64,000 nt of DNA from Thermoplasmata archaeon (GTDB lineage: Archaea > Thermoplasmatota > Thermoplasmata > UBA10834): contig JBFYNF010000045.1 in the NCBI GenBank assembly GCA_041304525.1, positions 7,479 to 71,478 on the forward strand, given 5' to 3'. Made by a program: the position numbers and the translations under genes. The notes below the pieces were generated by a model that was not told the DNA's origin, did not search any database, and worked only from the letters and a program-made list of their open reading frames with translations. Numbering within the stretch: the first letter of the stretch is position 1; the number at the start of each line of letters is the position of its first letter. Shown piece after piece: positions 1 to 64,000 of the stretch.

Positions 1-1
1 G

Positions 2-415
2 ATGAAGGCCGCCGTGCACTACGGCTGTCACTTCCTGAAGCCGAGCAACATCAAGAAGATCGACGACGCCGAGAGGCCGCACATATTCGACGACATCGTC
101 GAGGCGGCTGGCGTGACGAGCCTGCCATTCAAGGACAAGGGGACTTGCTGCGGCGCGGGCGGAGGCGTCAGGGCGAGGACGCCCGATGTGGCGCTCAAGA
201 TGACCAAGGAGAACCTGACGAACATGAAGGCCGCGGGCGCCGAGGTCATCGTCGACTGCTGCCCGTTCTGCCACCTGCAGTACGACGCCGGACAGGCGCA
301 GCTCAAGGAGTTCGGCATACCGGTGCTGCACCTGTCCCAGCTGCTCGGGATGGCGTTCGGGCTCGACAAGGCGAAGCTTGGGCTAGAGGTCCACCAGACC
401 AAGGTGAACCTGTAA
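2..415 (+). CDS. CCG-domain Fe-S protein, C-terminal fragment (heterodisulfide reductase subunit B / GlpC-like); the gene starts upstream of the window
   Basis: Translation carries the cysteine-rich CCG signature twice (C..CCGAGGG and CCPFCH), typical of HdrB/SdhE/GlpC; the ORF is open to the window edge. Confidence 0.6.
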   Translation: MKAAVHYGCHFLKPSNIKKIDDAERPHIFDDIVEAAGVTSLPFKDKGTCCGAGGGVRARTPDVALKMTKENLTNMKAAGAEVIVDCCPFCHLQYDAGQAQLKEFGIPVLHLSQLLGMAFGLDKAKLGLEVHQTKVNL

Positions 416-420
416 ACCAC

Positions 421-711
421 ATGGGGTGTCCGGAAATGCACAACGCTAACCTCGTAGTGATAACCGAGGTGAGGAACGTGCCCCCGGACATCCGACCGTT
501 TGTTTCTTTCAGGGCCGATGTGGAAGAGAGGACGCTCACGGAAGACGAGCTCGTCGCAATCCTGGTCATAGACACGACCACGAGCTACATACCCGTGTTC
601 CTGAAGGACCCGCCCTCTATGGCGGGCCTTGAGGGGATGCTCGCCAAGCAGGACGCGAAGCTCACCTCCGAGGCGAAAGCGGCCCTCTCCAGGCACATCA
701 AGATAAGCTGA
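421..711 (+). CDS. hypothetical protein (about 96 aa)
   Basis: ATG directly after the HdrB-like stop. G/C-ending codon bias resembles neighbouring genes. No recognisable motif and no clear RBS. Confidence 0.3.
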   Translation: MGCPEMHNANLVVITEVRNVPPDIRPFVSFRADVEERTLTEDELVAILVIDTTTSYIPVFLKDPPSMAGLEGMLAKQDAKLTSEAKAALSRHIKIS

Positions 712-763
712 AAAGTTCATTACTGACCACGCGATACACGTGCCGCCCAAGGAGCGGACCGAT

Positions 764-904
764 ATGGCGCGGACGATGTTCAAGTGCTTCACGTGCGGCA
801 GAGTCTACAAGGACGAAGAGAGCGCGGTCAAGTGCCACAACGCCCCCGTCCAACGCATAGTGGAGAACGAGAGGGCGTCGAAGCCCAGGTTCCTGGGCAA
901 CTGA
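764..904 (+). CDS. small Cys-containing protein (46 aa, CxxC...C..H), possible zinc-ribbon-like
   Basis: ATG at 764 is preceded by AGGAGCGG 6 nt upstream. Peptide is MARTMFKCFTCGRVYKDEESAVKCHNAPVQRIVENERASKPRFLGN. Below the 60-aa cutoff of the ORF track. Confidence 0.35.
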   Translation: MARTMFKCFTCGRVYKDEESAVKCHNAPVQRIVENERASKPRFLGN

Positions 905-940
905 CCGTATTTTCTTTCGCCTCATACGGGAGGACGAGAC

Positions 941-2692: not shown

Positions 2693-5600
2693 ATGACGAG
2701 TATGTATATGGGAACATCAAAACGTGTGCTAGCGTTCTTTCTCGCGACTGCATTTTTGTTCATGGCCATCCCGATGGCCGCGGACACGCCTCCACCTGTG
2801 CGGGAGGCAGCGGCTCTCGGAGAGACTTACGTCCAGGTCGGCTACATGAACATGGAGATCTCGTTCTGGAACCCTCTGACCATACAGATGGTCGAGGACT
2901 ACGTGGCGTGCTACCTGATGTACAGCGCCCTTTGGACCTATGACGAGGACTGGGCGGGACCCGTGAGCGACCTCGCCCTCGAATGGGATTCCGAACCTCA
3001 GGCGAACGGATCGATGAATACCTATGTGAGAATCACCGACAACGCTTACTTCAGGAACATGGGCAACCTCGCGGACACGAGCCAGAAGCTCACCGCGTAC
3101 GATGTCTCATGGACATTCAACCTGATTATGAACAACACGGGCTACACCTTCGACTGGTACTTGAGGGACATATACGAGATCGAGGTGTTGAGTGATACCG
3201 AACTCATCATCAAGACGACCTTCGTGAAGGCCACCCTGATAGATGACCTGTCCGGAGTCCCGATCTTGTGCGAGGATTACTGGGGCGACCTGAGCCAGCC
3301 GATGGCGAAGAGCATGGCACCCGAGGCCCAGTATGGGACGGGGCCGTTCGTCTATGAGGACCACGAGGAGGCCAGCTGGTACGCATTCAAGAAGGCGCCC
3401 AACTACTTCGGCGAGATTGAATACGGTGGTGACAGAACCATCGACATAGACGGCATCATGTACCGCATCTATACTGACCCGAGCGGAATCGCGCTTGCCC
3501 TGAACAGCGGCGATGTCGACGCCGTGAACCTCGGAGGGGAAGTGACCACTTACATGGAGGTCCTGGGTGTCGGCACATCCCTCGACATCGATAAATTCGC
3601 TGTCTCGGAGCCAGGTATCTGCGACGTCGCGATTAACGGGATACCCGATTTCTTCGACACGAACACATACTACAACGGCAACCCCATCCTGAGGGACCCG
3701 TTCGTCAGGCAGGCCATCATGATGACGCTCGACAAGACCTACATCGTGGGCACCATCCTCAACGGCCTGGCTACGCCGGCCGCGTCTGTTGTGCAGCCGG
3801 GGGCCTGGCAGGCGGACATCGACGAGTACGCCTTCGACCCTGCAGCAGCCAGGCAAATCCTGATAGACCACGGATACAGCGCTGACGATGATGGTGACAC
3901 ACTCCTGGAGGCCACGAGTTCCTCCATGGCGGTCCAAGAGGGCTGGTGCGACGAGGGTGACGAACTCTCAGGATTCAGATGTGAAGCGCCCGACACCGAC
4001 CAGAACTACTACACCATTGCTCTGAACTGGGTCAATGATGCGTATGAGGCAGGCGTCGGACTGGTGGCTGCCCAGAAGTCCGAGGGCGTAATGACCTCCA
4101 AGGCCTGGTACCTGTCCGACTACGACATATGGGTATGGCACTGGGGCTGGGGACCTGAACCGATCGGCGCCGCACTCACATGCTGGCTGACCGAGGAGAT
4201 CAGGGATGGCGGATACAACTGCCAGGGTCCGATGGGACCATGGTGGGTCCATGGCGAGAGCGCGGACTATGAGGAGAACTACTCCACGAGCCCGTTCGTC
4301 GATGCCGCGATGATCGAAGAGTTCGGCATGGATGAGGAAGGCTTCATCGGCTTCTCCGCGTTCGACCAGAACATATCGATTGCGCAGCAGACCCTTGATG
4401 TGACAGAGAGGAAGGTCATCCTCGACAAGCTGCAGCAGTGGGTTTACGACTCCTACACCGAGAACCCACCGTACTATGACCTTGGACTCTACGGCGTCAG
4501 CACAGCCCACTTCGTCGGCTGGGGCGACTGGGAGGAACACAACGGACGCCCGATGACCTCGGATCTCCTCTGGACCTGGTTCGACCTGATGAACGCGGAC
4601 AACCTGGCGCCTGAGTTCACAAGCGACCTCGACACAGACTACCAGGCGCTGATAAATCAGGACTTCTACGTGACAGTCCAGGTTAAGGACCGAGACGGCG
4701 ACCCGATCACCGTCAACTGCACTTGGGGCGACGGAAGCCTGCCGGAACAGATGCTGCTGACTGGCGACACGACAATCGCTGAGTCGGTCACATTCACGCA
4801 CCAGTATACCACCGTAGCATCGGACCTCGAGCTGATGATTTCGGCCTGGGACGGCTTGCAGAACCACGAAGCCTCGACCAGCGCGCTGGTCGATGTCGTC
4901 ACCATCCTGGACTACGGCCCTGTGATTGTGCCAGGCTCGCTGGTTGGAACGCCGGCATCGCCGGTCTATATCGAGCAGGCAGTCGATTGGACGATTTCCG
5001 CGAGCGACGCCGAGACCGACGAAACGGGTGCGCTCAAGTTCACTTGGGTTTGGGACGACGGCACATACGACGTATCAGAGCAGATCCCGGCCGAACTCGG
5101 AGGCACGGTGACGGACACGCAGACCCACACATGGACCGACATTGGCACCAAGGTGGTGGAGGTATGGGTGTTCGACGGATACCAGGACGACGAGACGAGC
5201 TCGGAGCACAACATCACCGCGACCAAGACCTACACGGTTCTGGAGAACACCGCGCCGTACAGCCTATCGGCATCGGAGATCCTCTGGACGCCTGACACCT
5301 GGGCGACGGTTTCTGGATCCGCGATTGACAACGACCCCGACACGCTAACCTTCACCTGGGAGTGGGACGACGGGACGTTCAACGTGACATCGGTGCTCAA
5401 CGAGGACCCGGGCTCTACCTTGGCCAACTCAGTCAAACACATGTGGGATGCTGATGGCACGTACGACGTCACCCTATGGGTCGACGACGGAAATGACCAC
5501 AACGAGTCCGTATCGGGGACCGTCACGATATCCAGCAACCCCGGGCCGACGGCACTTGCCGTGGTCCAGGAGCCCAACCCCGGATGGGTCGATCAGGAGA

Positions 5601-6601
5601 TCACCTTCACCGCATCCGCGAGCGACGCCAACGGCGACCCGTTGACCATGACGCTCGAGTTCGGAGATGGAACGCTAGCGGTCGACACCACCGAAGGAGG
5701 TTCGACGGAAGCTCAGACCGTGGTCTTCACCCACACATACACGGCCGAGGGACCGTTCTCGGCGACGCTTTATGCAGACGACAGCACGACGAACTCGTCG
5801 TTGCCGTTCTCCGCCAGGGTGTCCGAGAACGCAGCGCCTGATGTCTCGATGCAGTCGTCGTTCGTTGCGGGATTCAACGTCACCTTCGAGATAGCGCCGA
5901 TCGAAGTCTCGGACGATGATGGCGACGTGGTGACGATCTGGTACGACTGGGGAGACGAGACGCCCATGACCATGGGCGACCCTGAGGACTATTACTCGGC
6001 GACGCACGTGTACATGGACATCGGGACATTCACCGTGAAGGTGTATGCGGACGACGGGATGGGGCACAACGACAGCATATCCGTGCCCGTGATGGTCAGC
6101 GAGACCAACCTCAAGCCCACGTTGGCCGACCTGACCTTGACCCCCGAGGCCGACACATACTTTGTCGGCGACGTGATCACCTTCACCGTGAAGGTCAGCG
6201 ACCAGGAGGGAGACAACGTCACAGTGGTGATCGACTTCGACGATGATACGACCGACCAGATGGTCGTCGACACACTGCCCGGCAACGTCAACGCAACGGT
6301 GAACTTCACGCACGCGTTCGAGACGATCGGGGACTACTCGGTAGTCGCGAGCGTCACGGACGGAGAGGACCACTCGGACATGACGCCGCAATCCAGGACC
6401 ACGGATGTGGACATCGTCGGCCAACCGGTCGATACCAACTGGATCCTCATAGGCGGGATACTCCTGCTGATTGTGGCCGTGATCGTGGCCGCGTTCCTGC
6501 TGATGAAGCGGAAGAAGGGAGCTGAGCCCGCCGCCGGCGAGGACGGAATGGAAGGGATGGCCGCCCCGGTGGACCAGTCCCCGCCCCCACCTCTGAACTG
6601 A
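2693..6601 (+). CDS. cell-surface anchored ABC substrate-binding protein (family 5, oligopeptide/dipeptide type) fused to six PKD-like Ig repeats, a C-terminal TM anchor and a Pro-rich tail
   Basis: N-terminal signal peptide. First roughly 640 aa resemble OppA/DppA-type SBPs and are followed by DppB/DppC-type permeases. Six repeats carry WDDGT/FGDGT/WGDGS PKD-type cores. End is WILIGGILLLIVAVIVAAFLLMKRKKG plus a PPPP tail. Confidence 0.75.
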   Translation: MTSMYMGTSKRVLAFFLATAFLFMAIPMAADTPPPVREAAALGETYVQVGYMNMEISFWNPLTIQMVEDYVACYLMYSALWTYDEDWAGPVSDLALEWDSEPQANGSMNTYVRITDNAYFRNMGNLADTSQKLTAYDVSWTFNLIMNNTGYTFDWYLRDIYEIEVLSDTELIIKTTFVKATLIDDLSGVPILCEDYWGDLSQPMAKSMAPEAQYGTGPFVYEDHEEASWYAFKKAPNYFGEIEYGGDRTIDIDGIMYRIYTDPSGIALALNSGDVDAVNLGGEVTTYMEVLGVGTSLDIDKFAVSEPGICDVAINGIPDFFDTNTYYNGNPILRDPFVRQAIMMTLDKTYIVGTILNGLATPAASVVQPGAWQADIDEYAFDPAAARQILIDHGYSADDDGDTLLEATSSSMAVQEGWCDEGDELSGFRCEAPDTDQNYYTIALNWVNDAYEAGVGLVAAQKSEGVMTSKAWYLSDYDIWVWHWGWGPEPIGAALTCWLTEEIRDGGYNCQGPMGPWWVHGESADYEENYSTSPFVDAAMIEEFGMDEEGFIGFSAFDQNISIAQQTLDVTERKVILDKLQQWVYDSYTENPPYYDLGLYGVSTAHFVGWGDWEEHNGRPMTSDLLWTWFDLMNADNLAPEFTSDLDTDYQALINQDFYVTVQVKDRDGDPITVNCTWGDGSLPEQMLLTGDTTIAESVTFTHQYTTVASDLELMISAWDGLQNHEASTSALVDVVTILDYGPVIVPGSLVGTPASPVYIEQAVDWTISASDAETDETGALKFTWVWDDGTYDVSEQIPAELGGTVTDTQTHTWTDIGTKVVEVWVFDGYQDDETSSEHNITATKTYTVLENTAPYSLSASEILWTPDTWATVSGSAIDNDPDTLTFTWEWDDGTFNVTSVLNEDPGSTLANSVKHMWDADGTYDVTLWVDDGNDHNESVSGTVTISSNPGPTALAVVQEPNPGWVDQEITFTASASDANGDPLTMTLEFGDGTLAVDTTEGGSTEAQTVVFTHTYTAEGPFSATLYADDSTTNSSLPFSARVSENAAPDVSMQSSFVAGFNVTFEIAPIEVSDDDGDVVTIWYDWGDETPMTMGDPEDYYSATHVYMDIGTFTVKVYADDGMGHNDSISVPVMVSETNLKPTLADLTLTPEADTYFVGDVITFTVKVSDQEGDNVTVVIDFDDDTTDQMVVDTLPGNVNATVNFTHAFETIGDYSVVASVTDGEDHSDMTPQSRTTDVDIVGQPVDTNWILIGGILLLIVAVIVAAFLLMKRKKGAEPAAGEDGMEGMAAPVDQSPPPPLN

Positions 6602-6735
6602 CCACGAGGGCACACGGAAAAACCTTGACAAACCACTTACACCCCCTTTTATATGGGGCGTGAGCCAGACGGACAATCAAAACGAATACGAACCAGGTTC
6701 GGAACTGACAGACCATACTACCGGAAGGTGAACTC

Positions 6736-7716
6736 TTGGCTTCATTCAGGCGCGTGCTGTCGAAGCGGGTATTCAACGCATTCGTTACGATATTATTGAT
6801 CATGCTCGTCAACTTCCTCCTCTTCAGGGTCATGCCGTCCGACCCCGCGGACATGATGACCCCGAGGGACCCGACGACGCCTCCGGAGGTGAAGTGGAGG
6901 AACATCGAGGCGTGGGGACTGAACGACTCACTGTATGTGCAGCTCTACAAGTACTTCGTTGGGACGTTAACGGGTGATTGGGGGATATCATTCTGGTACG
7001 AAGACAATGTCGCCAACGTTTTAGGGAGTGCCATCGGCTGGACTATGCTCCTCTTAGGTACCTCGTCCGCGCTCACATTCATAATCGGCATAATCCTCGG
7101 CAAGTACGCCGCCCGCAAGAGGGGTAAACCGGCGGACGTGGCCATCACCTCGTTCGGCCTGTTCTTCTACGGGATGCCGATATTCTGGTTCGGCATCCTG
7201 CTGATGGTGCTATTCGTGAGCATCATACCCCTGTTCCCGAGCGGGCAGTACATTTCGGCAGGCCTCCACCCCGAGCTGACCCTGACATCCATTTCGGACA
7301 TCCTCTGGCACATGGCGCTCCCATGCGCCACGCTCACGATAGGATCCATCGCGGGCATCGTGCTCATACAGAGGAACTCACTCATAGACGTCCTGACGGA
7401 GGAGTACATAGTCACCGCCTACGCAAAGGGGCTGACAGAGGCACAGGTAATGAAGCGCCACGCGACTCCCAACGCCAGGTTGCCGGTTGTGACGACATTG
7501 GCGATGGATACGGCGTTCATCCTGGGAGGCGCGTTCCAGATAGAGGTCGTGTTCAGCTACAAGGGATTGGGGTACGTCACGATCGAAGCGATTGGCAGAC
7601 AGGACTACCCGATTCTCCAGTTCGTGTTCTTCATAGGTGGAGTCGCGGTAGTGATCGCCAACCTGATAGCAGACCTAGTGCTGGTCAAACTCGACCCAAG
7701 GGTGACGATTACCTGA
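6736..7716 (+). CDS. ABC transporter permease (OppB/DppB family)
   Basis: TTG start preceded by GGAAGGTGA. N-terminus ..LLFRVMPSDP matches the DppB N-terminal signature. Multiple TM segments with the EAA-like region. Confidence 0.85.
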   Translation: MASFRRVLSKRVFNAFVTILLIMLVNFLLFRVMPSDPADMMTPRDPTTPPEVKWRNIEAWGLNDSLYVQLYKYFVGTLTGDWGISFWYEDNVANVLGSAIGWTMLLLGTSSALTFIIGIILGKYAARKRGKPADVAITSFGLFFYGMPIFWFGILLMVLFVSIIPLFPSGQYISAGLHPELTLTSISDILWHMALPCATLTIGSIAGIVLIQRNSLIDVLTEEYIVTAYAKGLTEAQVMKRHATPNARLPVVTTLAMDTAFILGGAFQIEVVFSYKGLGYVTIEAIGRQDYPILQFVFFIGGVAVVIANLIADLVLVKLDPRVTIT

Positions 7717-7726
7717 TGGTGGTACC

Positions 7727-8659
7727 ATGACGTTCGAGAAGAAGTTCGAATCTGGCACGAGGAGACTCCTGGCATTCAACCCGCTGCTGGCCGACAAAGC
7801 CGGCCTATCGATGAGGAACATCGGGAGGACCACCGACCTCTTCATGGCGACGTGGATGGGAAAGATCGGGACGGGGATACTCGTGTTCTTCCTTGGAATC
7901 GTGGTGTTCACCGAGTTGTTCGTCCCCTACGACCCTGGAGATTTCACGACTGACAAGCTGCTGGACCCGAGTCTCGAGCACCCGTTCGGGACGGACCAGG
8001 TGGGTAGGGACGTCCTCACTAGGACCCTGCACGGCACAAAAGCCTCACTCATGGTGGGCTTCACGGCTATGATCATATCGATGGGGCTCGGGACAATCGT
8101 GGGCCTCGCCTCCGGATACTGGGGAGGGTGGAGGGACGAGGTGATCATGAGAGTCAACGACGTCTTCCTGTCCGTCCCGTGGCTCGTCCTGATGATTGTC
8201 ATCGCATCCATATGGGGCGCCCAGGACCTGACATCGGTCATCGTCGTTATCGGCGTGACAGGGTGGTCTACCACGGCGAGGATCGTGCGGTCGCAGGTAC
8301 TCTCCCTCAAGGCGAGGCAGTTCATCGAGAGGGCGAAGGCGCTCGGCGCGGGCGATTGGCACATCATAAGGAGGCACATATTCCCCAACGTCGTGCCCCT
8401 GATATTCGCCAACGCCATCCTGACCATCGCGATATCGATCCTCTCCGAGAGCACGCTCAGCTTCCTAGGTCTCGGGCCGCAGGACGTGGAGACCTGGGGC
8501 AGGGTGCTGGAGGACGCATACAACAACAACGTCGCCCTCGCTGGCCCGTTCATGTTCATCATCATGCCGGGAATATGCATCGTCGTGGTCGTCCTGGGGT
8601 TCACGTTCATCGGCTACGCGATGGACGAGATCCTGAACCCGAAGCTCAGGAAACGATGA
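7727..8659 (+). CDS. ABC transporter permease (OppC/DppC family)
   Basis: Starts 8 nt after the previous permease; polytopic membrane protein with OppC-like conserved loop. No ATPase genes follow. Confidence 0.85.
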   Translation: MTFEKKFESGTRRLLAFNPLLADKAGLSMRNIGRTTDLFMATWMGKIGTGILVFFLGIVVFTELFVPYDPGDFTTDKLLDPSLEHPFGTDQVGRDVLTRTLHGTKASLMVGFTAMIISMGLGTIVGLASGYWGGWRDEVIMRVNDVFLSVPWLVLMIVIASIWGAQDLTSVIVVIGVTGWSTTARIVRSQVLSLKARQFIERAKALGAGDWHIIRRHIFPNVVPLIFANAILTIAISILSESTLSFLGLGPQDVETWGRVLEDAYNNNVALAGPFMFIIMPGICIVVVVLGFTFIGYAMDEILNPKLRKR

Positions 8660-8761: not shown

Positions 8762-9529
8762 ATGGCTCAGAAGGCAAGGGCTGCGACAAAGAAGGTCAAG
8801 GACAAATGGCGCGCGAAGCAGTGGTACAACATCCACGCGCCGGACATGTTCAGCAAGATGCAGCTCGGGGAGACCCCATCGGACACGCCTGACCATATAA
8901 TGGGCAGGATAGCCGAGGCGACGGTCCAGGATCTCACGGGCGACTTCTCGAAGATGCACATAAAGCTCAAGTTCAAAGTGACCGACGTGCGGGGTTTCGA
9001 CGCATTCACGCTCTACGACGGACACACCCTGACGAACGACTACGTCAGGAGGCTCACCAGGAGGAAGAGGACCAAGACCGACGCGGTCATCGATGTGACC
9101 ACGAAGGATGGCTGGGAAGTCAGGATAAAGCCCATGGCGGTGTCCGAGCAGCGCATACAGGCGTCCCAGGAGACCGCCATCAGGAACATCATGAAGGAAT
9201 CCGTCCTCAAGGTCGCGTCCGAGTGCACCATAAGCGACCTCGTCCGCAAGATCATCATGGGGGACATGTCCAAAGCGATATCCGACGCGTCGAAGATCAT
9301 CGTACCTGTCAAGAGGATAGAAATCGGCAAGAGCGAGGTCATCAAGGCGGGCAGGCCACCGGAGCCGGACGAGGCCCCGATCGTGGCCCCCGAGGAGCCC
9401 GAGCCAGCACCGGAGCCGGCGCTCGAGGTCGCCCCGGCCGAGGAGAAACAGCCGACGCCTGAGCCGGCCCCTGCGACGAGCAGCGCTCCCGCCGAGGAAG
9501 AGATTCCCCCTGAGGAGAGGGCGCAGTAG
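8762..9529 (+). CDS. rps3ae: 30S ribosomal protein S3Ae (eS1) with an acidic/Pro-rich C-terminal extension
   Basis: N-terminus MAQKARAATKKVKDKWRAKQWYNIHAP is the S3Ae hallmark. The last roughly 55 aa are a PEPA/EEP low-complexity tail not usual for S3Ae. Confidence 0.85.
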   Translation: MAQKARAATKKVKDKWRAKQWYNIHAPDMFSKMQLGETPSDTPDHIMGRIAEATVQDLTGDFSKMHIKLKFKVTDVRGFDAFTLYDGHTLTNDYVRRLTRRKRTKTDAVIDVTTKDGWEVRIKPMAVSEQRIQASQETAIRNIMKESVLKVASECTISDLVRKIIMGDMSKAISDASKIIVPVKRIEIGKSEVIKAGRPPEPDEAPIVAPEEPEPAPEPALEVAPAEEKQPTPEPAPATSSAPAEEEIPPEERAQ

Positions 9530-9566: not shown

Positions 9567-9674
9567 GTCGGGGTGGCTCAGCCTGGTAGAGCGTCGGACT
9601 CATAGGGAGTTCTTCTGACCAGATGCTCCTAGGACATCCGAAGGCCGCGGGTTCGATTCCCGTCCCCGACACCA
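9567..9674 (+). tRNA. tRNA-Met (anticodon CAT, elongator type; could alternatively be tRNA-Ile2) with a 31-nt intron at the canonical 37/38 position; CCA encoded
   Basis: Manual fold: acceptor GTCGGGG/CCCCGAC, D arm GCTC..GAGC, anticodon stem TCGGA/TCCGA with loop CTCATA|intron|A, T arm GCGGG-TTCGATT-CCCGT, then ACCA. Intron 9605-9635 lies between the anticodon-stem halves. Confidence 0.75.
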
Positions 9675-11277: not shown

Positions 11278-11739
11278 GTGTCTTACCGTATGGTAAAGAT
11301 GTTGGTTCCGTACCCGGACAAGTGCACGGGGTGCAGGTTCTGCGAGATGGCCTGCTCACTGTATCATGAAGGCAAGGTCAACCACGGCAGCGCGCGGCTG
11401 CAGGTCCACAGGAGGGATGTCAGGACCGACTTCCCAGCTGTGTGCACGCACTGCGTGTCGTGCGGGGAGGAATGTTGCGTCCTCCACTGCCCGGTCGAGG
11501 CGATCAAGAACGAGGACGGCATCGTCCGTGTCGAGGAGAGCGAGTGCACCGCGTGTGGCACCTGCGTCGAAGTGTGCCCGTTCGGAGTGATGCGCATGGA
11601 GGATGTGGCGTTCAAGTGCGACCTCTGCGGAGGGGACCCCACATGCGTCAAGTTCTGCCCGATGGGCGCCATCAAGTACGAGGAGCCGAAGCCCGAGCAG
11701 TACGAACTCGTCCGGAACCTGCTCAAGGAGGAGGAGTGA
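11278..11739 (+). CDS. 4Fe-4S ferredoxin-type protein (poly-cluster), likely AOR electron-transfer partner
   Basis: Four CxxCxxCxxxCP-like motifs (CTGCRFCEMAC; CTHCVSCGEECCVLHCP; CTACGTCVEVCP; CDLCGGDPTCVKFCP). Stop overlaps the AOR start region. Confidence 0.85.
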   Translation: MSYRMVKMLVPYPDKCTGCRFCEMACSLYHEGKVNHGSARLQVHRRDVRTDFPAVCTHCVSCGEECCVLHCPVEAIKNEDGIVRVEESECTACGTCVEVCPFGVMRMEDVAFKCDLCGGDPTCVKFCPMGAIKYEEPKPEQYELVRNLLKEEE

Positions 11740-11740
11740 C

Positions 11741-13570
11741 ATGAAGGGATATGCAGGCAGGATCTTGAAGGTCGATCTCTCCACTGGGAAGAGCTCCATC
11801 AAGACCATCGACGAGAAGTACGCCAGGAAGTACCTGGGAGGCCAGGGCTTCGCGGTAGAAATTGTCTATCACAACGTGCCCGAGGGCGCGGACGCGCTCT
11901 CGCCCGAGAACGTGCTCGCGATGGCGCCCGGACTGTTCGCAGGCTACCCCGTCCCCACGGGCGGGAAGACCGCGTTCGCGGGCAAGTCGCCGGCGACCAA
12001 CACGCTCGCGGAGAGCATCATGGGAGGCTCCATAGGGGCCGAGCTGAGACACGCGGGGTATGACGCGCTCGAGGTCCACGGGAAGGCTGAGAAGCCCGTG
12101 TACCTGTTCATAAACGACGACGAGGTCGAGGTCAACGAGGCCGACGACCTATGGGGCAAGGACACGAGGGTCACGCCGGAGACGCTCAAGAAACGCCACG
12201 GCTGGGATGTCAAGGTCGCGTGCATAGGCGTCGCTGGCGAGAAGCTGGTCAGGATGGCGTGCATCGACTGCGACGACAGGCAGTCCGGCAGGGCCGGGCT
12301 CGGGGCCGTCATGGGCTCCAAGAACCTCAAGGCGGTCGTCGTCAGGGGCACAAAGGACCTGGAGCCGGCAGACCCAGGCGCGCTCCTCGAGATAGCCCTC
12401 AGATATCAGAAGATCATGGAGGCCGCGCCCTCGTTCATAGAGGACACGAAGTACGGCACCGGCGAGTTCCTGGGCTGGATCAACAAGGAGAAGGGAGTGT
12501 TCCCGACAAGGAACTGGCAAGAGAGCGTCTTCAAGGAGAGGGAACAGATCGACCCATACTATTGGGCGACCAGGTACGTGACGAAGAACAAGGCGTGCTT
12601 CGCCTGCACCAAGCCCTGCGGCAAGCTGTTCGAGGTGAAGGACGGCAAGTTCGCGGGGGTGGTCATCGACGGGCTCGAGTACGAGACCCTGTACTCTCTG
12701 GGCAGCAGCTGCGGCAACGCGAGCATCGAATCCGTCGCCAGGGCGAACGAGGTCTGTGACCTCGTGGGCATAGACACCATATCCGCTGGTGTCACCATCG
12801 GCTTCGCGATGGAGCTCATCCAGAGGGGCATCCTGACGGAGCAGGAGGTCGGCATGAAGCTCACGTGGGACAACGCCGCGGACGCGGTGCCCAAGATGTG
12901 CGAGATGATGGGTAACCGCGAAGGCTTCGGCGACGTCCTCTCGGAAGGCGTGAAGAGAGCCTCGGAGAAGATAGGCAGAGGCTCCGCGAGGTACGCGATA
13001 CACACGAAGGGCATGGAGCCTCCAGCGTACGATGTCAGGGGCATGAAGGGCCACGGGCTGTCGTTCATGACGTCTACCAGGGGTGCGTGCCACCTGAGGG
13101 CAGGGTTCTACGCCCCCGAGCTCGTGGGCAAGTTCTGGCGCTGGGAGGGCATCGACAGGTTCTCGACCGAGGGCAAGGGCGAGAAGGTCGCCACCATGGA
13201 GAACTTCATGTGCGTGTACGACTCGATCGGCCTGTGCAAGTTCTCGAGGGGCTTCTTCCTCATAGACAAGCTGAGGGAGGTCATCAAGGCCATCACAGGG
13301 CTGGAGTTCACCGAGGACGAGCTGCTCAGGACCGGCGAGAGGATACACACCATGAAGGGCAACTTCAACGTGCTCCAGGGCATCACCAGGAAGGACTGGC
13401 TCCTCCCACCCAGGATACTCGAGGACCCGATCCCGGACGGACCATCCAAGGGTTCCAAGATCAGCGTCGAGGAGATGAACAGGATGCTCGACGACTACAT
13501 GACCTTCAGGAAGTGGACGGCAGACGGGGTCCCCACCCCTGAGAAGCTGAAGGAGCTGGAGATAGCCTAG
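11741..13570 (+). CDS. aor: tungsten-containing aldehyde:ferredoxin oxidoreductase (AOR family)
   Basis: N-terminus MKGYAGRILKVDLSTGK is the classic AOR start. Conserved AOR blocks are present throughout. RBS GGAGGAGGAG upstream. The track ORF begins earlier at 11603 but overlaps the ferredoxin gene. Confidence 0.9.
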   Translation: MKGYAGRILKVDLSTGKSSIKTIDEKYARKYLGGQGFAVEIVYHNVPEGADALSPENVLAMAPGLFAGYPVPTGGKTAFAGKSPATNTLAESIMGGSIGAELRHAGYDALEVHGKAEKPVYLFINDDEVEVNEADDLWGKDTRVTPETLKKRHGWDVKVACIGVAGEKLVRMACIDCDDRQSGRAGLGAVMGSKNLKAVVVRGTKDLEPADPGALLEIALRYQKIMEAAPSFIEDTKYGTGEFLGWINKEKGVFPTRNWQESVFKEREQIDPYYWATRYVTKNKACFACTKPCGKLFEVKDGKFAGVVIDGLEYETLYSLGSSCGNASIESVARANEVCDLVGIDTISAGVTIGFAMELIQRGILTEQEVGMKLTWDNAADAVPKMCEMMGNREGFGDVLSEGVKRASEKIGRGSARYAIHTKGMEPPAYDVRGMKGHGLSFMTSTRGACHLRAGFYAPELVGKFWRWEGIDRFSTEGKGEKVATMENFMCVYDSIGLCKFSRGFFLIDKLREVIKAITGLEFTEDELLRTGERIHTMKGNFNVLQGITRKDWLLPPRILEDPIPDGPSKGSKISVEEMNRMLDDYMTFRKWTADGVPTPEKLKELEIA

Positions 13571-14476: not shown

Positions 14477-14508
14477 TTCCTCCGACGAAATCGTGTTGAA
14501 AAGTCTTT

Positions 14509-21534: not shown

Positions 21535-21557
21535 AAGGCTTTGAAGGATGTGATTCC

Positions 21558-37654: not shown

Positions 37655-37665
37655 GGTAGGACAGG

Positions 37666-43544: not shown

Positions 43545-43553
43545 GACCAGACC

Positions 43554-51267: not shown

Positions 51268-52776
51268 TCAAGGATACTCTAGTCGTCTCGTATCGAATCC
51301 CTTCGCATACTCCCGGAGCAGAACAGCCATGCCCTTGCTCACCTCAGGCTCGAGCGGCTCGGGTGTATGAGTTTTCAGGAGTTCGTACATACGCTCCTTC
51401 GCACGTTCGTCGGCGCTCTTAGACCCTTTGGCGACCCACTGCTGCCTGGTCGACCTGTCTGATAGCCTGGCCGTATGGTGCTCATTCCTGAACTGCGTCA
51501 GCGTCTCCTTCCTCTTCAGGTAGTTGCCCTGAGGACCAGTCTTGTGGATGACGTCTACCGACAGAGTGCTCTCGTCGACCACGATGCCAGCAGCGATTCT
51601 GTTCACGTTCGAGGCGATTTCGTCATCAATAATCAGCTGAACGGGGGAGAAGGCGTTGAACGCCTCCGTAGAACCCATGAAGAGTTCGGCGAAGTCCGCC
51701 CCGGCCAGAGTGGCCATCAACGCCGCTTGCGTCTTCTCGTACGAAGTCTGAGCGTCAACCATCTTCGAGTCGCTCTGGACACCCATGTCGCTCGGCAGGC
51801 CATAGAACTTAGCGAGTTCGACCGTGCCGACCCCCAAGAGGGAGAACTCGGGCGCACCTGTGGCGGCGATGCCTGACCTCATGTCCAGAGGACATGAGAC
51901 GGACCCGTAGACGACCCTTGGGGATTTCGTGACGCACTTCGCTATCGCTATCGAGCTCAGTATCTCGGCGTTCTGCTGGACGAGCAGACCAGCCAGCGAG
52001 GCGGGCGCTGTCCCCCCTGCGAGCGCCATGACCATGATGAAGACCGGCAGGTCCATCTCCGCATACTTCAGGAGCGTCTCGAGCATGTGCTTGTCGTGCC
52101 CCAGAGGGCTAATCGGGTCGATGTAGCCCGGGAAGAGCGGAGTCTTCCTGAGGAGTTCCCTGTCCCCCAGGAGTAGCTCCGAGACGCGGAGCATGAGCTC
52201 GAACTCGATGCTGTCTCCGCTGCTCCCATAACTCGGCTTGGACGTGTGCATCAGACTCGTGACCCACATGACCATGCTCTGGGCGTCGGTATGGACGTCG
52301 CCCGGATAGACGGGCACATAGCCGACGGTGCATGTGTCCAGGGCGTCCAGGAGCCGGCTTATGAGGATTCCGTCCTTGAGGGTCGACGGCCGATACTCAC
52401 CCGTTTCGGGATCGATGTAGAACAGACACTGCGCCCCAGGGCCGAACTTGGTCCTGCCGTCGACGGCATCCACTGACCGGCTCTTATTTCTTGCATGCCA
52501 TCGGAAGTTGTGGGCGCAACTCTTGACCGCCTCCGCGACAGAAGACTCGGACATGCGCACGATCCTCGACTTCCGATCAACTGAGTAACCGTTGCTCTGA
52601 AGCATGTCGAGCACTTCTGGGGAGTCCACGAACACGCCTGTCTTCTCGAGCACTTCGAGGGTCGCGCCGTGAATCGCCTCCAGATTGGCTCTCCCAAGCA
52701 CCGTGAGCATGTTCTTCCCAGAAACCATGTGTACCTCTGCTCCGCCGATAGTGATGGCGTTGGTTCGGTTGACCAT
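51268..52776 (-). CDS. MttB-superfamily methyltransferase, non-pyrrolysine type (trimethylamine/quaternary-amine:corrinoid methyltransferase-like)
   Basis: 502-aa uninterrupted ORF with MttB-like N-terminus (..LEAIHGATLEVLEKTGVFVDSPE..) and TIM-barrel blocks; no in-frame TAG. Confidence 0.75.
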   Translation of the reverse strand: MVNRTNAITIGGAEVHMVSGKNMLTVLGRANLEAIHGATLEVLEKTGVFVDSPEVLDMLQSNGYSVDRKSRIVRMSESSVAEAVKSCAHNFRWHARNKSRSVDAVDGRTKFGPGAQCLFYIDPETGEYRPSTLKDGILISRLLDALDTCTVGYVPVYPGDVHTDAQSMVMWVTSLMHTSKPSYGSSGDSIEFELMLRVSELLLGDRELLRKTPLFPGYIDPISPLGHDKHMLETLLKYAEMDLPVFIMVMALAGGTAPASLAGLLVQQNAEILSSIAIAKCVTKSPRVVYGSVSCPLDMRSGIAATGAPEFSLLGVGTVELAKFYGLPSDMGVQSDSKMVDAQTSYEKTQAALMATLAGADFAELFMGSTEAFNAFSPVQLIIDDEIASNVNRIAAGIVVDESTLSVDVIHKTGPQGNYLKRKETLTQFRNEHHTARLSDRSTRQQWVAKGSKSADERAKERMYELLKTHTPEPLEPEVSKGMAVLLREYAKGFDTRRLEYP

Positions 52777-59168: not shown

Positions 59169-61925
59169 TCAGTCCGGTGTTTCGTCGAGCGATTCCAAGT
59201 TCCTCTTGGCCGCGGCCAGAGCCGCATCATCGCCCAGCAACTCTGCCTGTCCGACGGCTTCGACATACCGCGATCTCGCGGCTGTGTAATCCCCACGTTT
59301 CTCCTCGATGTTGCCAAGCATGAGATGGACCGCCACAAGCCCGGCCTTGTCTCCTGCTGCCCTCAACAGTCTCTCGGCGTCCCTGAGCTTGTCCGAAGCC
59401 CCATCCAAGTCGCCTGAACGCTCCTTCACCAGGGCGAACTCGACCTTGGCCTTGGAGCGGAGCACCGAGTCATCCAGTGACTCTGCCATGTTCGTCAAAC
59501 GTTCGATCTCGGCCTCGGCACCCTTCAGGTTCCCAGAAGACCTGAGCAGGCCGATGAGCGTGATGGACAAGGCGACATCACCGCGATCGTATCGCGCAGT
59601 CCTCTTGAGCAGGCCTGTCCTCTTCCTAAGCTCGGGCCTCGACAAGGCGTCGATGGCAATCTCGATTGCCTCACCCGTCCCGCCCTGAGCTCCGATGGAC
59701 TCCGAACACACGGCCTGGAGCCTCTTGAACTCCTCGAGCTCGCCAGCACGCCTGAATGCCTCGGACGATTCACGCAGTAGGGCAGTCATCTCATTCAGAC
59801 GCGCCTGTATCCTGAACAGTTCTGCGAGATTCTCCAACCCCCTGGCCTCACCTGCATGGTTCTTCACCGCATGTGCGAGCCTGACAGATTCCCTCAGCCG
59901 AGTCTCGGCGTCCTTGAGCCTGCCCTCGTCCCAATCGAGCAACGCCAGGTTGTTCATACATGCGGACTGGGCGCCCCTATCCTCACTCTTGCTAGCGAGT
60001 GACAGGGCCTCGGTATACGCCGCCCTCGCCTTTGCGAAGTCCCCGCGTTTCCTGTGCGCACCCCCTATGTTCAGCCACTCGCGTGTCTGCCCGCTCACAT
60101 CTCCGGTCTTCTCGTAGATTCTCAGAGCCTTCTCGTGAGCTTCGAACGATTCCGCAAACTGCTCGACTCGCGTCTTCAACTTCCCAAGCGACTCAAGCAC
60201 CTGTGCTCGTTCCTCACTGCCCTCGTCCTCCTGGAGCAGGTCCAGACAGGATTCGTAATGCCTCGCTGCGGAGGCGTCATCTCCGAGCATCTCGCTCAGT
60301 TGACCCATGTGGAAGAGCGTTCCGACTGACTCGGCAACAGAGGCCGGCTCAGCATTGATCAGTTCGAGATACTCGAGCGTCTCGTGAGGGAACTCGAGCG
60401 ACAAATCCTCGAAGGCATCTGTTGCCACTCGCCTGGCTGAGGCGATATCTCCAGCCTGGATATAGTGATGGAGGCTCTCGATCATCCAGTCGGCTCCTTC
60501 CCTGCCCTCGCAGTACCCTGCGGCCCTCCTGTGAAGCATCGCCCGTGAATCAGCGCCCAGTCGAGAGATGAAGAATTCGCGAAGAACGTCGTGGGTCCAC
60601 ACACCGTTCTCCTGTTCGACCACGAGGGCCTTATCCTTCAGGCCGATGAAGGCTGTGGCCTCTCTGTCAACGATTGCCTCCAGCGGGACTGGATGGCGAT
60701 AGACGGACAGGAGTTCGAGCATGCCACGCTCCTCTGGAGTCAGAGACATGCTGATCTCCCGGTCCATAAACGACAAGATGTCGCCCCTGGACTCGCCCAC
60801 GCCACTCCGGGACATGAGGCTCAGTAGCAATGGGTGACCACGGCTGGCATCCGCAGTCACAGCGGGGTCTTTCGCCTTCGCGCTCTCGGCGAACTTCCTT
60901 GCGGAAGCGTTGTCCAGCCCCGACAACTCCAACGTGACGTTTCCGTCCCCCGTCTTCGAGAAGAACTGAGGCAGCTCACGGGAAATCAGCACCGCCTTAC
61001 AGGTCCCGGAGGCTCTGACCGCTTCGAGAACCACCGCCAACGTCAGGCCGAGTCTCTCCGAAATCTTCTGGACATCATCCAGGAACAGTACCGCGTCAAA
61101 TCCGGCAAGGTCACTCAACAGTGGAGCGTACAGGCCGCCCACCACGGCCCCTCTTTCCCGTTCCTCAGCGGTAGATCGGCGGTTCGCAGACTCCAGAAAC
61201 TTCGACAGCACTGACACGAAGTGCTCCTCTGTGTCCCACGAATGGAAGGAGTACCAGAACAGGTGTTTCCGCCCTGAGAGCTCGTCAAACGCCTTGGATG
61301 CGAGTGAGGTCTTGCCGATGCCAGGGATGCCCCATATCAGCATGACTGACGAATCGCCGCTGACGTGGTTCATGATAGCCTTCCGCTCGTTCTCGCGCCC
61401 GTACAGAATCGGCATCTTCGGTCTGCCAAGCTCAGCCTCGACGTATCTCTCCTTCCTGACCGACGGCACGAGCTTCTTGGAGAGCTCGTCCGATCTCACC
61501 ACATCGATGCCACGAGCTATGTCCACGAGGTCGAGAAAACTGGGCGTGTAGCCAGTGAGTGCGCTGAAATGCTTGAACGCCTCGGCAAGGGTCATCTCCT
61601 CCGCCCGTCCCCTCTCCTCGTAGACCACCCGGGACTTCAGGAGGTTGTCCTTAACATCATTGGCAACCTTGTGCCCCTTCTCCGTCAGAAAGTATGCCCT
61701 CCGCCTTTTGGGGGCGCCGCGTATGTGCGCCAGCCTATCCATGACAACACCATCCGACTCCAGCACGGACAAGGCCCTTGATACGTTATGGACCTGAGTT
61801 CCCAGGCGGTTGGCAATGCCCTCCTGACTTGCGCCCAGGGGTACCTCCGGTTCCGCCCTGTGGCCATCCATCTCCAGCAGATGGAGCATTAGTCGTTCGT
61901 TCTGGGATACAACTGGGCGGGGCAT
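59169..61925 (-). CDS. STAND-type regulator: N-terminal winged HTH, central AAA+/NB-ARC-like NTPase, C-terminal TPR array
   Basis: N-terminus ..LGASQEGIANRLGTQVHNVSRALSVLESDGVV.. (wHTH). Walker A LIWGIPGIGKTSLASKA with Walker B-like VLFLDDVQ. Many TPR-like A..Y..AL helical repeats in the last roughly 450 aa. Confidence 0.75.
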   Translation of the reverse strand: MPRPVVSQNERLMLHLLEMDGHRAEPEVPLGASQEGIANRLGTQVHNVSRALSVLESDGVVMDRLAHIRGAPKRRRAYFLTEKGHKVANDVKDNLLKSRVVYEERGRAEEMTLAEAFKHFSALTGYTPSFLDLVDIARGIDVVRSDELSKKLVPSVRKERYVEAELGRPKMPILYGRENERKAIMNHVSGDSSVMLIWGIPGIGKTSLASKAFDELSGRKHLFWYSFHSWDTEEHFVSVLSKFLESANRRSTAEERERGAVVGGLYAPLLSDLAGFDAVLFLDDVQKISERLGLTLAVVLEAVRASGTCKAVLISRELPQFFSKTGDGNVTLELSGLDNASARKFAESAKAKDPAVTADASRGHPLLLSLMSRSGVGESRGDILSFMDREISMSLTPEERGMLELLSVYRHPVPLEAIVDREATAFIGLKDKALVVEQENGVWTHDVLREFFISRLGADSRAMLHRRAAGYCEGREGADWMIESLHHYIQAGDIASARRVATDAFEDLSLEFPHETLEYLELINAEPASVAESVGTLFHMGQLSEMLGDDASAARHYESCLDLLQEDEGSEERAQVLESLGKLKTRVEQFAESFEAHEKALRIYEKTGDVSGQTREWLNIGGAHRKRGDFAKARAAYTEALSLASKSEDRGAQSACMNNLALLDWDEGRLKDAETRLRESVRLAHAVKNHAGEARGLENLAELFRIQARLNEMTALLRESSEAFRRAGELEEFKRLQAVCSESIGAQGGTGEAIEIAIDALSRPELRKRTGLLKRTARYDRGDVALSITLIGLLRSSGNLKGAEAEIERLTNMAESLDDSVLRSKAKVEFALVKERSGDLDGASDKLRDAERLLRAAGDKAGLVAVHLMLGNIEEKRGDYTAARSRYVEAVGQAELLGDDAALAAAKRNLESLDETPD

Positions 61926-62104
61926 CTCGCAACCTCGAACGAGATTGGTTCCTAATACCCCTTTCGCATGAAATATCCGATTCCGAAAGCACCTGGATGA
62001 GGCATGGGAGGGTGCAAATCAGGTGCAAAACAATCCTCAGGGTTCAAATACCCCGGGGATACCTCGTGAGGGCAGAGACGCCTCAAACAGGAGGTAGGAA
62101 GAAC

Positions 62105-63580
62105 ATGAAGGACTTCAGAGTGAAGACGGCTTTCGCGGTGTCGGCCATTCTCATGATGGTAATGGGCATGCTTGCGGTACCCGCACAGGTATCCGCAGAG
62201 ACGGTCACATTGGACGAGCAGATTGCGACGGAGGATGGTGTCACCGACATACTCGGCGGCGGTGACCACTTCTTCGTCAAGTTCGGAACTGACGCTGCAT
62301 TCGGCATCGTGTGGGGGACCGAAGGGGACGAGAACTGCGTGTACTTCGTCGCAATAAAAGCGAGGTATCTCGGACTCGCGCAGGTCTACAACAGCGATGG
62401 CGAGATGATCGAGGAGAACCGCACCGTCAAGGTATACACGATGTACGCAGTGAAGCTCGACTCTATGTTGGAGTTCAACGACTCTGATGACAACGGTCTG
62501 CTGAACTACACAAGGAGCTACGATGGCGACGCTTTCCTTGACTACACCTACGACGAGACGGTATACAAGAGGGTCGACCTGACCACCGCGTGGAACGCTT
62601 CTGAGGTCATCGAGACCGATGGCGATGACAACAGGTCATGGGAGTTCAGCCTGACAGCGACCGACCTGCCTTACGATATCGTGAACGAGTCCGCTGAGCC
62701 GACCGTCGGGGACAACGTCCTCAACGAGCTCAAGCTGACGTTCCACCTGACTGCGGACCTCGTGCAGTACGACAATGTGTCCCTGCCACAGTGGAGGATA
62801 ACCGTCACGACAGGCCCCCTCGGCAAGATGGTCTTCATGACCGCTGACAGGCTAGAGAACATGCAGGTCACCGGGAAGATCCTCAAGTACGATGTCAAGT
62901 GGGACCAGGAGATAACGGGCTGGGACTACGACCCAAACAACACGAACCCGGCCGTGCTCATAGAGTTTCACAGCCTTGTGGGCAACTTCATCTCCCCACT
63001 CATGGCAACTTGGATGCAGATGAACACCCTGACATACATGAACGCCGTCGGTGTCATGAACTGCGAATCGACCGAGGGTGAACTCGATGTGGACGAAACC
63101 ACCGGTACCCTGACACAGCCCAAGGAGCTGATCAGGACCAGACTGTCCTTCGGGAGCGACTGGACAAGCATCGGCGCACTGACATGGGTCGACAACGTGA
63201 CCGTTGACGGCGAACCCGAGCTTGTGAAGGCTCAGATCATGGCGGGCCATAGGATTGTCGCCATGGCGAAGATCGGCGGCGAGTGGGCACCGTTCACAGG
63301 GTTCGTCGCCCTTGGCGCGTTGGTGTTCCCCGGCGGAACCAGCATCGTGCACGACCCAGTCTTCTCGTCCGAGGCGCTCGTCGAGATATCGACGGAGGAC
63401 ACTACGAGACTGCCAGTGTTCCTGCTCTTGATAGGTGCAGTGGTCATAGTGTTAATCGTGGTCGCGATTGCAGCCGTGACGACCACTGGGAAGAAGGCCG
63501 GCAAGGGAGACCAGGGCTCATACGAGAGGAGCAAGAGCTCCCAGCCAGGTGACTGGTCCAAGTACTACGGCAAGAAGTAG
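62105..63580 (+). CDS. secreted, C-terminally membrane-anchored hypothetical surface protein
   Basis: ATG 62105 with AGGAGGTAGG RBS. Signal peptide MKDFRVKTAFAVSAILMMVMGMLAVPAQVSA. Beta-rich Asn/Thr-rich body. C-terminal TM LPVFLLLIGAVVIVLIVVAIAAV plus a Lys-rich tail. Followed by a hairpin/T-rich terminator. Confidence 0.55.
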   Translation: MKDFRVKTAFAVSAILMMVMGMLAVPAQVSAETVTLDEQIATEDGVTDILGGGDHFFVKFGTDAAFGIVWGTEGDENCVYFVAIKARYLGLAQVYNSDGEMIEENRTVKVYTMYAVKLDSMLEFNDSDDNGLLNYTRSYDGDAFLDYTYDETVYKRVDLTTAWNASEVIETDGDDNRSWEFSLTATDLPYDIVNESAEPTVGDNVLNELKLTFHLTADLVQYDNVSLPQWRITVTTGPLGKMVFMTADRLENMQVTGKILKYDVKWDQEITGWDYDPNNTNPAVLIEFHSLVGNFISPLMATWMQMNTLTYMNAVGVMNCESTEGELDVDETTGTLTQPKELIRTRLSFGSDWTSIGALTWVDNVTVDGEPELVKAQIMAGHRIVAMAKIGGEWAPFTGFVALGALVFPGGTSIVHDPVFSSEALVEISTEDTTRLPVFLLLIGAVVIVLIVVAIAAVTTTGKKAGKGDQGSYERSKSSQPGDWSKYYGKK

Positions 63581-63598
63581 GTGCAAACCCCAGAAAAC

Positions 63599-63625
63599 GG
63601 AGGCCGAGAACGCCTCCATTTCATG
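63599..63625 (+). terminator. hairpin plus T-rich tract between convergent genes
   Basis: GGAGGC-cgagaac-GCCTCC followed by ATTTCATGCTTTCT. Confidence 0.45.
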
Positions 63626-63748
63626 CTTTCTACTCAACGACTTATCGCAACGACAGCTACATGGAAAATGCTCGAGGTCCTGAGAGAGTCGAATCCACTC
63701 TCAGGACCCGTTCGGGTTTCAGAGTCCGTCGACGCACATGAATAGTGC

Positions 63749-64000
63749 TCACAACACTTCAGGGACTTGGTAGTCCGGGAACCCAATCTCGCTTCCATCG
63801 AGTGTCAAGAGAGTCTCAGGGGTCTTGAACATCACGAATATCGAGACCATGTCTCCGTCCTCGTACGACACGCTGGTCAAATCGAGGCTCGGAAGCGTCA
63901 CCTGGATCGACAAGGACCCATCTGCGTACACCGATGTGATGTAGGTTGAGGCGACCAACGGGGAACCGTCCAACGACAGGACGACCGGGGCGTCGTTTAT
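63749..64000 (-). CDS. C-terminal part of a gene continuing beyond the 3' window edge (hypothetical)
   Basis: Reading frame stays open to position 64000 on the minus strand; stop at 63749. Function not recognisable from 84 residues. Confidence 0.3.
   Translation of the reverse strand: MNDAPVVLSLDGSPLVASTYITSVYADGSLSIQVTLPSLDLTSVSYEDGDMVSIFVMFKTPETLLTLDGSEIGFPDYQVPEVL

Follow-up and report, generated by a model that had tools for sequence, protein, structure and literature searches.

Conserved archaellum locus with two tandem arlI motor ATPase genes in an uncultured Thermoplasmata lineage

A 64,000-nucleotide (nt) stretch of contig JBFYNF010000045.1 (GenBank assembly GCA_041304525.1), hereinafter referred to as the window, was analyzed for its archaellum locus, which spanned 20.9-33.9 kb and contained two genes for the motor ATPase ArlI. 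The window encoded about 57 genes and had a G+C content (GC) of 58.5%, close to the 60% given in a preliminary description of the same DNA. GC dipped slightly across the arl region (0.56-0.57, versus 0.59-0.61). Genes were called with a codon-usage model, which was preferred over calling of the longest open reading frames (ORFs), and all substantial ORFs were scanned with Pfam and NCBIfam profiles. The long ORFs at 28-792 (minus strand), 13658-15122, and 21531-22142 (minus strand) were rejected as spurious, since the model assigned other genes there; genes recovered by the model were the HdrB fragment, DUF749, the Fer4 gene, Roadblock, V4R, AMMECR1, and an extra arlD. The archaellum locus and its immediate surroundings comprised the following features.

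20179-20547, plus strand: small winged helix-turn-helix (HTH) regulator directly upstream of arlB1; weak PF12840 and TrmB matches
20920-21534, plus strand: arlB1, archaellin; PF01917 at 1.3e-26, TIGR02537 N-terminal domain
21558-22019, plus strand: extra arlD/E-like gene (arlD) between the archaellin genes arlB1 and arlB2; PF04659 at 1.6e-15
22366-24087, plus strand: arlB2, archaellin of 573 amino acids (aa); PF01917 on residues 17-87
24567-25181, plus strand: arlB3, archaellin; PF01917 at 3.3e-27, start MQKLAWKK set by analogy with arlB1
25285-26442, plus strand: arlCE, fusion of FlaC and FlaD/E domains; PF05377 and PF04659
26432-27622, plus strand: arlF; NF052590, 110.6 bits on residues 24-143 (cutoff 110)
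27626-28072, plus strand: arlG; NF052591 at 3.1e-29, 101.9 bits, just below the 110-bit cutoff
28077-28787, plus strand: arlH, KaiC-like; NF052589, 248 bits (cutoff 215)
28798-30429, plus strand: arlI1, motor ATPase paralog 1; NF058587, 725 bits (cutoff 550)
30447-30530, plus strand: promoter-like module, copy 1, in the arlI1-arlI2 spacer: a 22-mer, a TATA-like CTTAT box, then GAGGCCACC; found in 7 of 7 genomes
30609-32258, plus strand: arlI2, motor ATPase paralog 2, canonical motifs complete; NF058587, 709 bits (cutoff 550)
32266-33927, plus strand: arlJ, platform protein; NF004704, 553.8 bits (cutoff 550)
34188-34249, plus strand: promoter-like module, copy 2, which ends at the start codon (ATG) of the surface-protein gene
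34250-37351, plus strand: surface protein of 1033 aa with a signal peptide, CARDB/Ig-like domains, and a C-terminal transmembrane anchor
37439-39281, plus strand: Sm (37439-37654), ribosomal protein L37e (37666-37833), and PurF (about 37833-39281, start uncertain)

The archaellum genes were arranged in the order arlB1, arlD, arlB2, arlB3, arlCE, arlF, arlG, arlH, arlI1, arlI2, and arlJ, followed by the gene for the 1033-aa CARDB/Ig surface protein and then by Sm-L37e-PurF. The preliminary description had listed an intact set of three arlB, arlC/D/E, arlF, arlG, arlH, two arlI, and arlJ. No frameshift was found in these genes, arlC/D/E being represented by the ArlCE fusion, and the extra arlD has to be added to that list. 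The Sm-L37e-PurF synteny described there was also recovered, by direct reading of the genes and by the Pfam labels of the orthologues in a relative. No ArlX was present in the locus. TIGR02537 matched the N-termini of ArlB1 and ArlB3, and the motif GxGTLIIFIA was read directly. In ArlB2, archaellin N- and C-termini flanked an insert of about 390 aa in which three FN3/Ig-like repeats were recognized by direct reading; the Big_13 and fn3 Pfam matches to this insert were sub-threshold only. ArlF was 396 aa long, with a C-terminal extension of about 260 aa containing six NHL-like repeats (direct reading). For this extension, a beta-propeller Pfam match was sub-threshold and a single-sequence AlphaFold model was unusable, with a predicted local distance difference test score (pLDDT) of 38. 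ArlG was assigned as the best match in the correct position despite its sub-cutoff score. For the winged-HTH protein, a regulatory role is suggested by its position upstream of arlB1.

GTDB species representatives were scanned with ArlI2 as the query, and six close relatives were found at 73-98% identity, the next best match being at most 56% identical. The block arlB1-arlB2-arlB3-arlCE-arlF-G-H-I1-I2-J-CARDB was collinear in all six (loci L007-L012; 43-100% aa identity), and one syntenic relative was a closed chromosome of 1.70 Mb (CP070748.1). The arlD gene was matched in 3 of the 3 relatives tested. Full-length orthologues of ArlB2 were present in 5 of the 6 relatives, and 521 of its 573 aa were matched in L012. 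The surface-protein gene always lay directly after arlJ in this clade, and Sm-L37e-PurF followed the archaellum block in L008-L012, the five loci that extended far enough. A seventh assembly carried arlJ, CARDB, Sm, L37e, and PurF in the same order, the last three with the Pfam labels LSM, Ribosomal_L37e, and GATase/Pribosyltran. Ratios of nonsynonymous to synonymous substitution rates (dN/dS) against the closest relative (L007) were 0.00-0.13 for 11 of 12 genes and 0.35 for arlG, with unsaturated dS. In addition, a search with ArlJ returned about 45 clusters (clustered at 90%) at 70% identity or more, several of them on contigs of 0.76-1.97 Mb, which shows that the clade is widespread.

Outside the clade, the nearest loci were those of the DHVE2/Aciduliprofundum group of Thermoplasmata, with ArlJ identities of 47-48%, compared with 28-36% in the other lineages sampled. 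These loci shared the arlG-H-I-J order with the window, and identities were 49-50% for ArlH, 55-59% for ArlI, and 34-37% for ArlG. In contrast, they contained a single arlI, no full-length match to the 573-aa archaellin, and no match to ArlF or ArlCE, and their arlJ was not followed by a CARDB gene. Motility has been described for Aciduliprofundum boonei. Because the locus is syntenic in relatives, under purifying selection, and nearest to DHVE2 Thermoplasmata, the sequence comparisons indicate that the archaellum is native, old, and maintained, and point neither to transfer nor to an assembly artefact. The preliminary description had presented the archaellum as a surprise in such a genome; it is in fact routine in this lineage, being syntenic in 6 of 6 species-level relatives.

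The two ArlI proteins were 55.5% identical, and their genes formed a tandem pair in all seven genomes of the clade. Identity was 36% in the N-terminal domain and 69% in the ATPase domain. In a neighbour-joining tree of 92 ArlI sequences (300 bootstraps), each paralog was monophyletic (100%) and the paralogs were sisters (96%), with the species order mirrored between them; DHVE2 was the next group out (62%). The sister relationship and the mirrored species order therefore indicate one duplication before the clade diversified. Both paralogs retained Walker A, Walker B with the catalytic Glu, and the Asp box, and their dN/dS values against L007 were 0.065 (arlI1) and 0.049 (arlI2). A 34-aa N-terminal extension of ArlI2 was considered and rejected, as it was unconserved and interrupted by in-frame stops in relatives, which sets the start at 30609.

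The first His of the His box, equivalent to H353 of Sulfolobus acidocaldarius FlaI, was replaced by Ile in all ArlI1 orthologues. In PilB, the equivalent His packs against a Thr that touches the neighbouring subunit. Tandem arlI genes in arlG-H-I-I'-J operons were also found in seven Ca. Methanoperedens-type loci (L023, L026, L037, L039, L042, L044, and L046) and in L085, where they apparently arose by duplication independently. The His box of the second copy in the Methanoperedens pairs read AMQAGN in place of AMQTGH, a His-to-Asn change. The two substitutions were not accepted as proof of convergent inactivation; the His-to-Ile change is not evidence of inactivation, because the same change occurs in a single-copy arlI operon (P0351/L094). 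Other ArlI representatives carried Val, Ala, or Leu at this position.

As a separate observation, many ArlI representatives (P0347, P0349, P0353, P0355, P0357, and others) were 700-1270 aa long and matched the query in two stretches. The break fell at query residue 387, immediately before the TGH of the His box, which is the pattern that would be expected of inteins inserted at this site.

The spacer between arlI1 and arlI2 was about 180 nt long, whereas neighbouring arl genes abutted or overlapped. It contained a 22-nt block, TGATAGTCAGNCNTGAGAATTG, which was invariant in all seven genomes except at its two variable positions and was followed by a CTTAT TATA-like box and then by GAGGCCRCC. 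The block recurred once more in the window, at 34188-34209, where zero chance matches would be expected. In this second copy, about 25-30 nt separated the TATA-like box from the ATG (ATGGCCACC) at which the surface-protein gene starts, and the module was likewise conserved in relatives (L007-L012 and L093). In both copies, GGCCAC was located about 40 nt downstream. No Rfam match was obtained for the spacer. We infer that the module may combine an archaeal promoter with an operator and be shared by two transcription units, in which case arlI2-arlJ would be expressed with a leader of roughly 100 nt and the surface-protein gene as a near-leaderless transcript. The spacer copy also resembled a duplicate of the surface-protein promoter together with its start codon.

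Components ArlB, C, D/E, F, G, H, I, and J were all shared with the canonical euryarchaeal arl cluster as described for Pyrococcus furiosus, Haloferax volcanii, and Oxyplasma meridianum (PMC12448462), whereas the window differed in having two ArlI, an arlD moved among the archaellin genes, and an ArlF three times as long as usual. The known euryarchaeal archaellum is represented here by a variant whose lineage-specific features are the two old ArlI paralogs, the promoter-like module, the 573-aa archaellin with an FN3 insert, and the repeat-extended ArlF. With ArlCE fused and ArlD encoded separately, the locus is similar in this respect to H. volcanii and its arlCE/arlD arrangement.

Taken as a whole, the window is quite likely an ordinary chromosomal stretch of an uncultured Thermoplasmata archaeon from anoxic sediment that swims with a vertically inherited archaellum of the euryarchaeal type, and whose methanogen-like genes are no sign of methanogenesis. 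The organism is probably non-methanogenic, and its lineage would be a family-level clade represented by six or more genomes at the species level, some of them complete chromosomes of 1.7-2.0 Mb. By analogy with characterized members of these protein families, the pre-archaellins ArlB1-3 would be processed by a prepilin peptidase encoded elsewhere and assembled on the ArlJ platform by the ArlI ATPase, with ArlH modulating ArlI. ArlCE and ArlD would form the cytoplasmic ring, and ArlF and ArlG the stator.

Several points weigh against this interpretation. Motility is a prediction from genes only, and neither a prepilin peptidase (ArlK/PibD, Peptidase_A24) nor a che domain was matched among the window ORFs scanned. 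The lineage can be assigned at the class level only, and one clade member has been deposited in NCBI as 'Methanomassiliicoccus sp.'. Further, the region inspected for methanogenesis context consisted of the window and its flanks of roughly 10 kb, and mcrABG, pyl genes, or other methyltransferases may be encoded elsewhere. As to the peptidase, the gene for ArlK is commonly unlinked to the arl cluster.

The preliminary description had read the gene content as that of a methylotrophic-methanogen-like genome of the Methanomassiliicoccales type, in part on account of two genes.

2-415, plus strand: HdrB-like CCG protein, C-terminal domain; PF02754 at 1.2e-18 (match 2-412); the gene is cut by the window start
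51268-52776, minus strand: non-pyrrolysine (non-Pyl) methyltransferase of the MttB superfamily; PF06253 at 4.8e-84, profile positions 25-487 of 500

Both gene assignments held. The visible part of the HdrB-like protein was its C-terminal 137 aa (the complete gene on the source contig encoded 283 aa), and its motif CCGAGGG...CPFC, read directly, fits CXnCCGXmCXXC. A CxxCxxCC protein at 16401-17549 (PF03692) was rejected as the HdrB candidate, the CCG gene being the one at the window start. On the source contig, a gene for an HdrC-like 170-aa protein with 2x[4Fe-4S] lay directly upstream of the HdrB-like gene, and no hdrA or mvh gene was found near the pair in the 8.6 kb upstream or the 20 kb downstream that were inspected. 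The MttB-family ORF consisted of 502 uninterrupted codons without an in-frame TAG (amber), and the protein scored 409 bits against TIGR02369, the trimethylamine/Pyl equivalog, below the cutoff of 525. Its listed homologues, down to 61% identity, were mostly uninterrupted proteins of 484-502 aa forming a large environmental family. Among solved structures, the best match was the glycine betaine:corrinoid methyltransferase MtgB (DSY3156; PDB 2QNE, 9YCE), also a non-Pyl PF06253 protein, at 7e-70 over residues 26-488, narrowly ahead of the Pyl-type MttB at 3e-66. Because the latter scores almost as well, the substrate is not assignable. Unlike in the MtgB system, no corrinoid-protein gene was adjacent, nor did an MtbA gene adjoin; the neighbours were ABC-2 transporter genes and a gene for a protein without a Pfam match.

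The alternative that these genes bear on is an environmental, methyl-reducing methanogen of the Methanomassiliicoccales radiation, with mcr encoded elsewhere and an archaellum kept or gained, and it has only a small chance of being correct. The two genes themselves, the GC of 58.5% (59.9% in M. luminyensis), a RACo-type corrinoid activator encoded elsewhere in the same assembly, and the 'Methanomassiliicoccus sp.' label would all fit such an organism. Against this, no gene specific to methanogenesis was seen in the window, and McrABG was absent from the window and its flanks. The MttB protein was of the non-Pyl type and below the equivalog cutoff, and TAG served as the stop codon in 15 of 56 window genes, or in 22 of 94 (23%) when flanking genes of the same organism were added; genes ending in TAG included those for S3Ae and aldehyde:ferredoxin oxidoreductase (AOR) as well as arlB1, arlB3, and arlI2. 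In Pyl-decoding methanogens, TAG stop use has been reported as 1.6% in M. alvus, 11.3% in M. luminyensis, and 4-5% in Methanosarcina (Borrel et al., PMC4153887), so that the value found here is twice that of M. luminyensis and significantly above it (p = 7e-4). Within the phylum, mcrAB has been reported only from Methanomassiliicoccales, the cultured members of which are non-motile, as the preliminary description had stated, and M. alvi lacks archaellum genes (PMC10673518); described species of these methanogens are thus unlike the window, which carries arlB through arlJ.

The same gene mix is found in the non-methanogenic orders sister to Methanomassiliicoccales (UBA10834/Ca. Gimiplasmatales COMBO-56-21, RBG-16-68-12, and SG8-5), which have no mcr but do possess hdr genes and a non-Pyl mttB (Zinke et al.); hdr pairs such as HdrCB are known from non-methanogens in the literature on these orders. 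Their genomes are about 1.5-1.9 Mb with a GC of 55-58%, they originate from anoxic freshwater sediments, and metagenome-assembled genomes (MAGs) of COMBO-56-21 are reported to carry genes for motility as well. The window agrees with these orders in gene mix, GC, genome size, and habitat, a likeness that is not a placement by marker genes. Because the HdrCB-like pair and the non-Pyl MttB both occur in such non-methanogenic relatives, they are not a sign of methanogenesis. Of the earlier reading, the class Thermoplasmata stood, in agreement with NCBI labels, and the methylotrophic-methanogen-like character was not supported, given the MttB score and the TAG usage.

A filament that resembles an archaellum and serves a purpose other than swimming, such as adhesion or extracellular electron transfer, or an ArlI copy that serves another type IV filament, is rather improbable. 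The absence of che genes and ArlK from the window would be compatible with it, the giant FN3-insert archaellin ArlB2 and the putatively co-regulated surface protein suggest surface interactions, and pilin/archaellin-like filaments of M. luminyensis have been proposed in the literature to function in electron uptake. However, the full rotary set of ArlCE/D, F, G, H, I, and J is conserved under purifying selection, both ArlI proteins score above the equivalog cutoff and group as sisters within the ArlI tree, and the nearest loci are archaellum loci of the Aciduliprofundum group.

Proteins identical to those of the window were present on a 255-kb contig from wetland sediment of the Joint Genome Institute (JGI; 3300009087, Ga0105107_10000001), in which the window corresponded to about 129.9-193.9 kb, as well as on Logan contigs and in several NCBI MAGs. 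Identical or near-identical proteins were labelled 'Thermoplasmata archaeon' in NCBI. Homologues of ribosomal protein S3Ae (65-100% identity) were all from uncultured organisms, those with a name being Thermoplasmata or Thermoplasmatota. An intron-bearing tRNA-Met(CAU) and the Sm-L37e pair are archaeal-style features that fit this label. The 944-kb contig of GCA_041320395.1 encoded identical proteins with several junctions joined otherwise than in the contigs from JGI and Logan; RNA polymerase genes, for example, followed a 146-aa gene, and S28e/L7Ae followed a truncated gene for a solute-binding protein (SBP). These differences reflect either a real rearrangement or a misassembly, and ArlJ was only 332 aa long in that assembly. 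That the archaellum locus of another archaeon was artificially joined to Thermoplasmata sequence by assembly or binning, as the differing gene order and the slightly lower GC of the arl region might suggest, is extremely improbable, since seven independent assemblies, one of them a closed chromosome, show the locus and Sm-L37e-PurF on one contiguous stretch, and the HdrCB-M20-S3Ae-Get3-AOR block is syntenic in another contig of 1.98 Mb.

The remaining genes assigned in the window included the following.

2693-6601, plus strand: solute-binding protein (SBP_bac_5) of 1302 aa with four PKD stretches
6736-8659: two ABC permease genes after the SBP gene
8762-9529, plus strand: ribosomal protein S3Ae; PF01015 at 5.4e-66
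9567-9671: tRNA-Met (CAU), interrupted by a 33-nt intron that follows the anticodon loop; Rfam match, missed by ARAGORN
11290-13570, plus strand: 4Fe-4S protein (11290-11739), then an enzyme of the AOR family (11741-13570; PF01314, PF02730)

A PKD-anchored SBP had been noted in the preliminary description and was recovered as listed. For the tungsten AOR named there, the enzyme family was supported by the profile matches, and the tungsten cofactor would be an assumption. A Get3/ArsA gene was also present in the window. The upstream half, in the order HdrCB-DUF749-M20-S3Ae-Get3-Fer4-AOR, was syntenic in a more distant relative on a contig of 1.98 Mb (L091). In this relative, the SBP-PKD gene and the two permease genes (2693-8659) were absent between the M20 peptidase and S3Ae, and the transporter block therefore appears to be a lineage-specific insertion into a conserved neighbourhood. 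Genes for Roadblock/LC7 (minus strand), V4R (minus strand), and AMMECR1 (plus strand) at 13642-15162 were masked by longer spurious ORFs in other frames. The gene at 39486-39827 encoded a small membrane-anchored protein whose tail, rich in Cys and Asp, was made up of DGDG(I/V)CD repeats; TSP3 calcium-binding repeats were weakly matched. At 41496-48333, a 682-aa protein with a molybdopterin-oxidoreductase domain (weak diheme-GEGP match) was followed by a metallophosphoesterase and then by an ECF-type transporter consisting of an S component, a double ATPase, and CbiQ; the S component had a weak Oxidored_molyb-like C-terminal region, and the grouping is unusual. Further, the gene at 59169-61925 (minus strand), adjoining a DUF7064 gene, encoded a STAND-type NTPase of 918 aa that began with a Crp-like HTH and carried TPR repeats in its C-terminal part.

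The two-ATPase arrangement is the more novel point of the locus and worth follow-up. One motor ATPase per operon has been stated for all known archaella (PMC12448462), a rule from which the two tandem arlI genes depart, and no description of a two-arlI operon was found in the literature searched, the coverage of which was incomplete. Paralogous PilT-like ATPases encoded together are known from type IV filaments with two ATPases, namely PilB/PilT/PilU and the CdiP pilus of Cuniculiplasma; PilT and PilU share an operon, as do CdiPE1 and CdiPE2, and one PilT/PilU paralog works only through the other. Unlike the window paralogs, which are both ArlI-type sisters without a sign of opposing roles, these ATPases belong to pili with extension and retraction. 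The N-terminal domain of FlaI in Sulfolobus acidocaldarius reportedly separates motility from assembly. It is conceivable, if doubtful, that two specialised ArlI power the archaellum in this clade and, independently, in some Ca. Methanoperedens, either as separate hexamers for assembly and rotation or as a mixed hexamer.

For the lineage as a whole, archaella are inherited, and the framing as a methanogen with an archaellum fails; HdrB-like and non-Pyl MttB genes should not serve as methanogenesis markers in Thermoplasmata. For the mechanism by which one ArlI hexamer achieves both assembly and rotation of the filament, a conserved two-paralog operon offers a natural test system in which these activities might be separated, and both ArlI proteins can be expressed and assayed biochemically without culturing the organism. 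If the two paralogs are indeed specialised, they would represent a natural separation of functions that are now credited to one enzyme.

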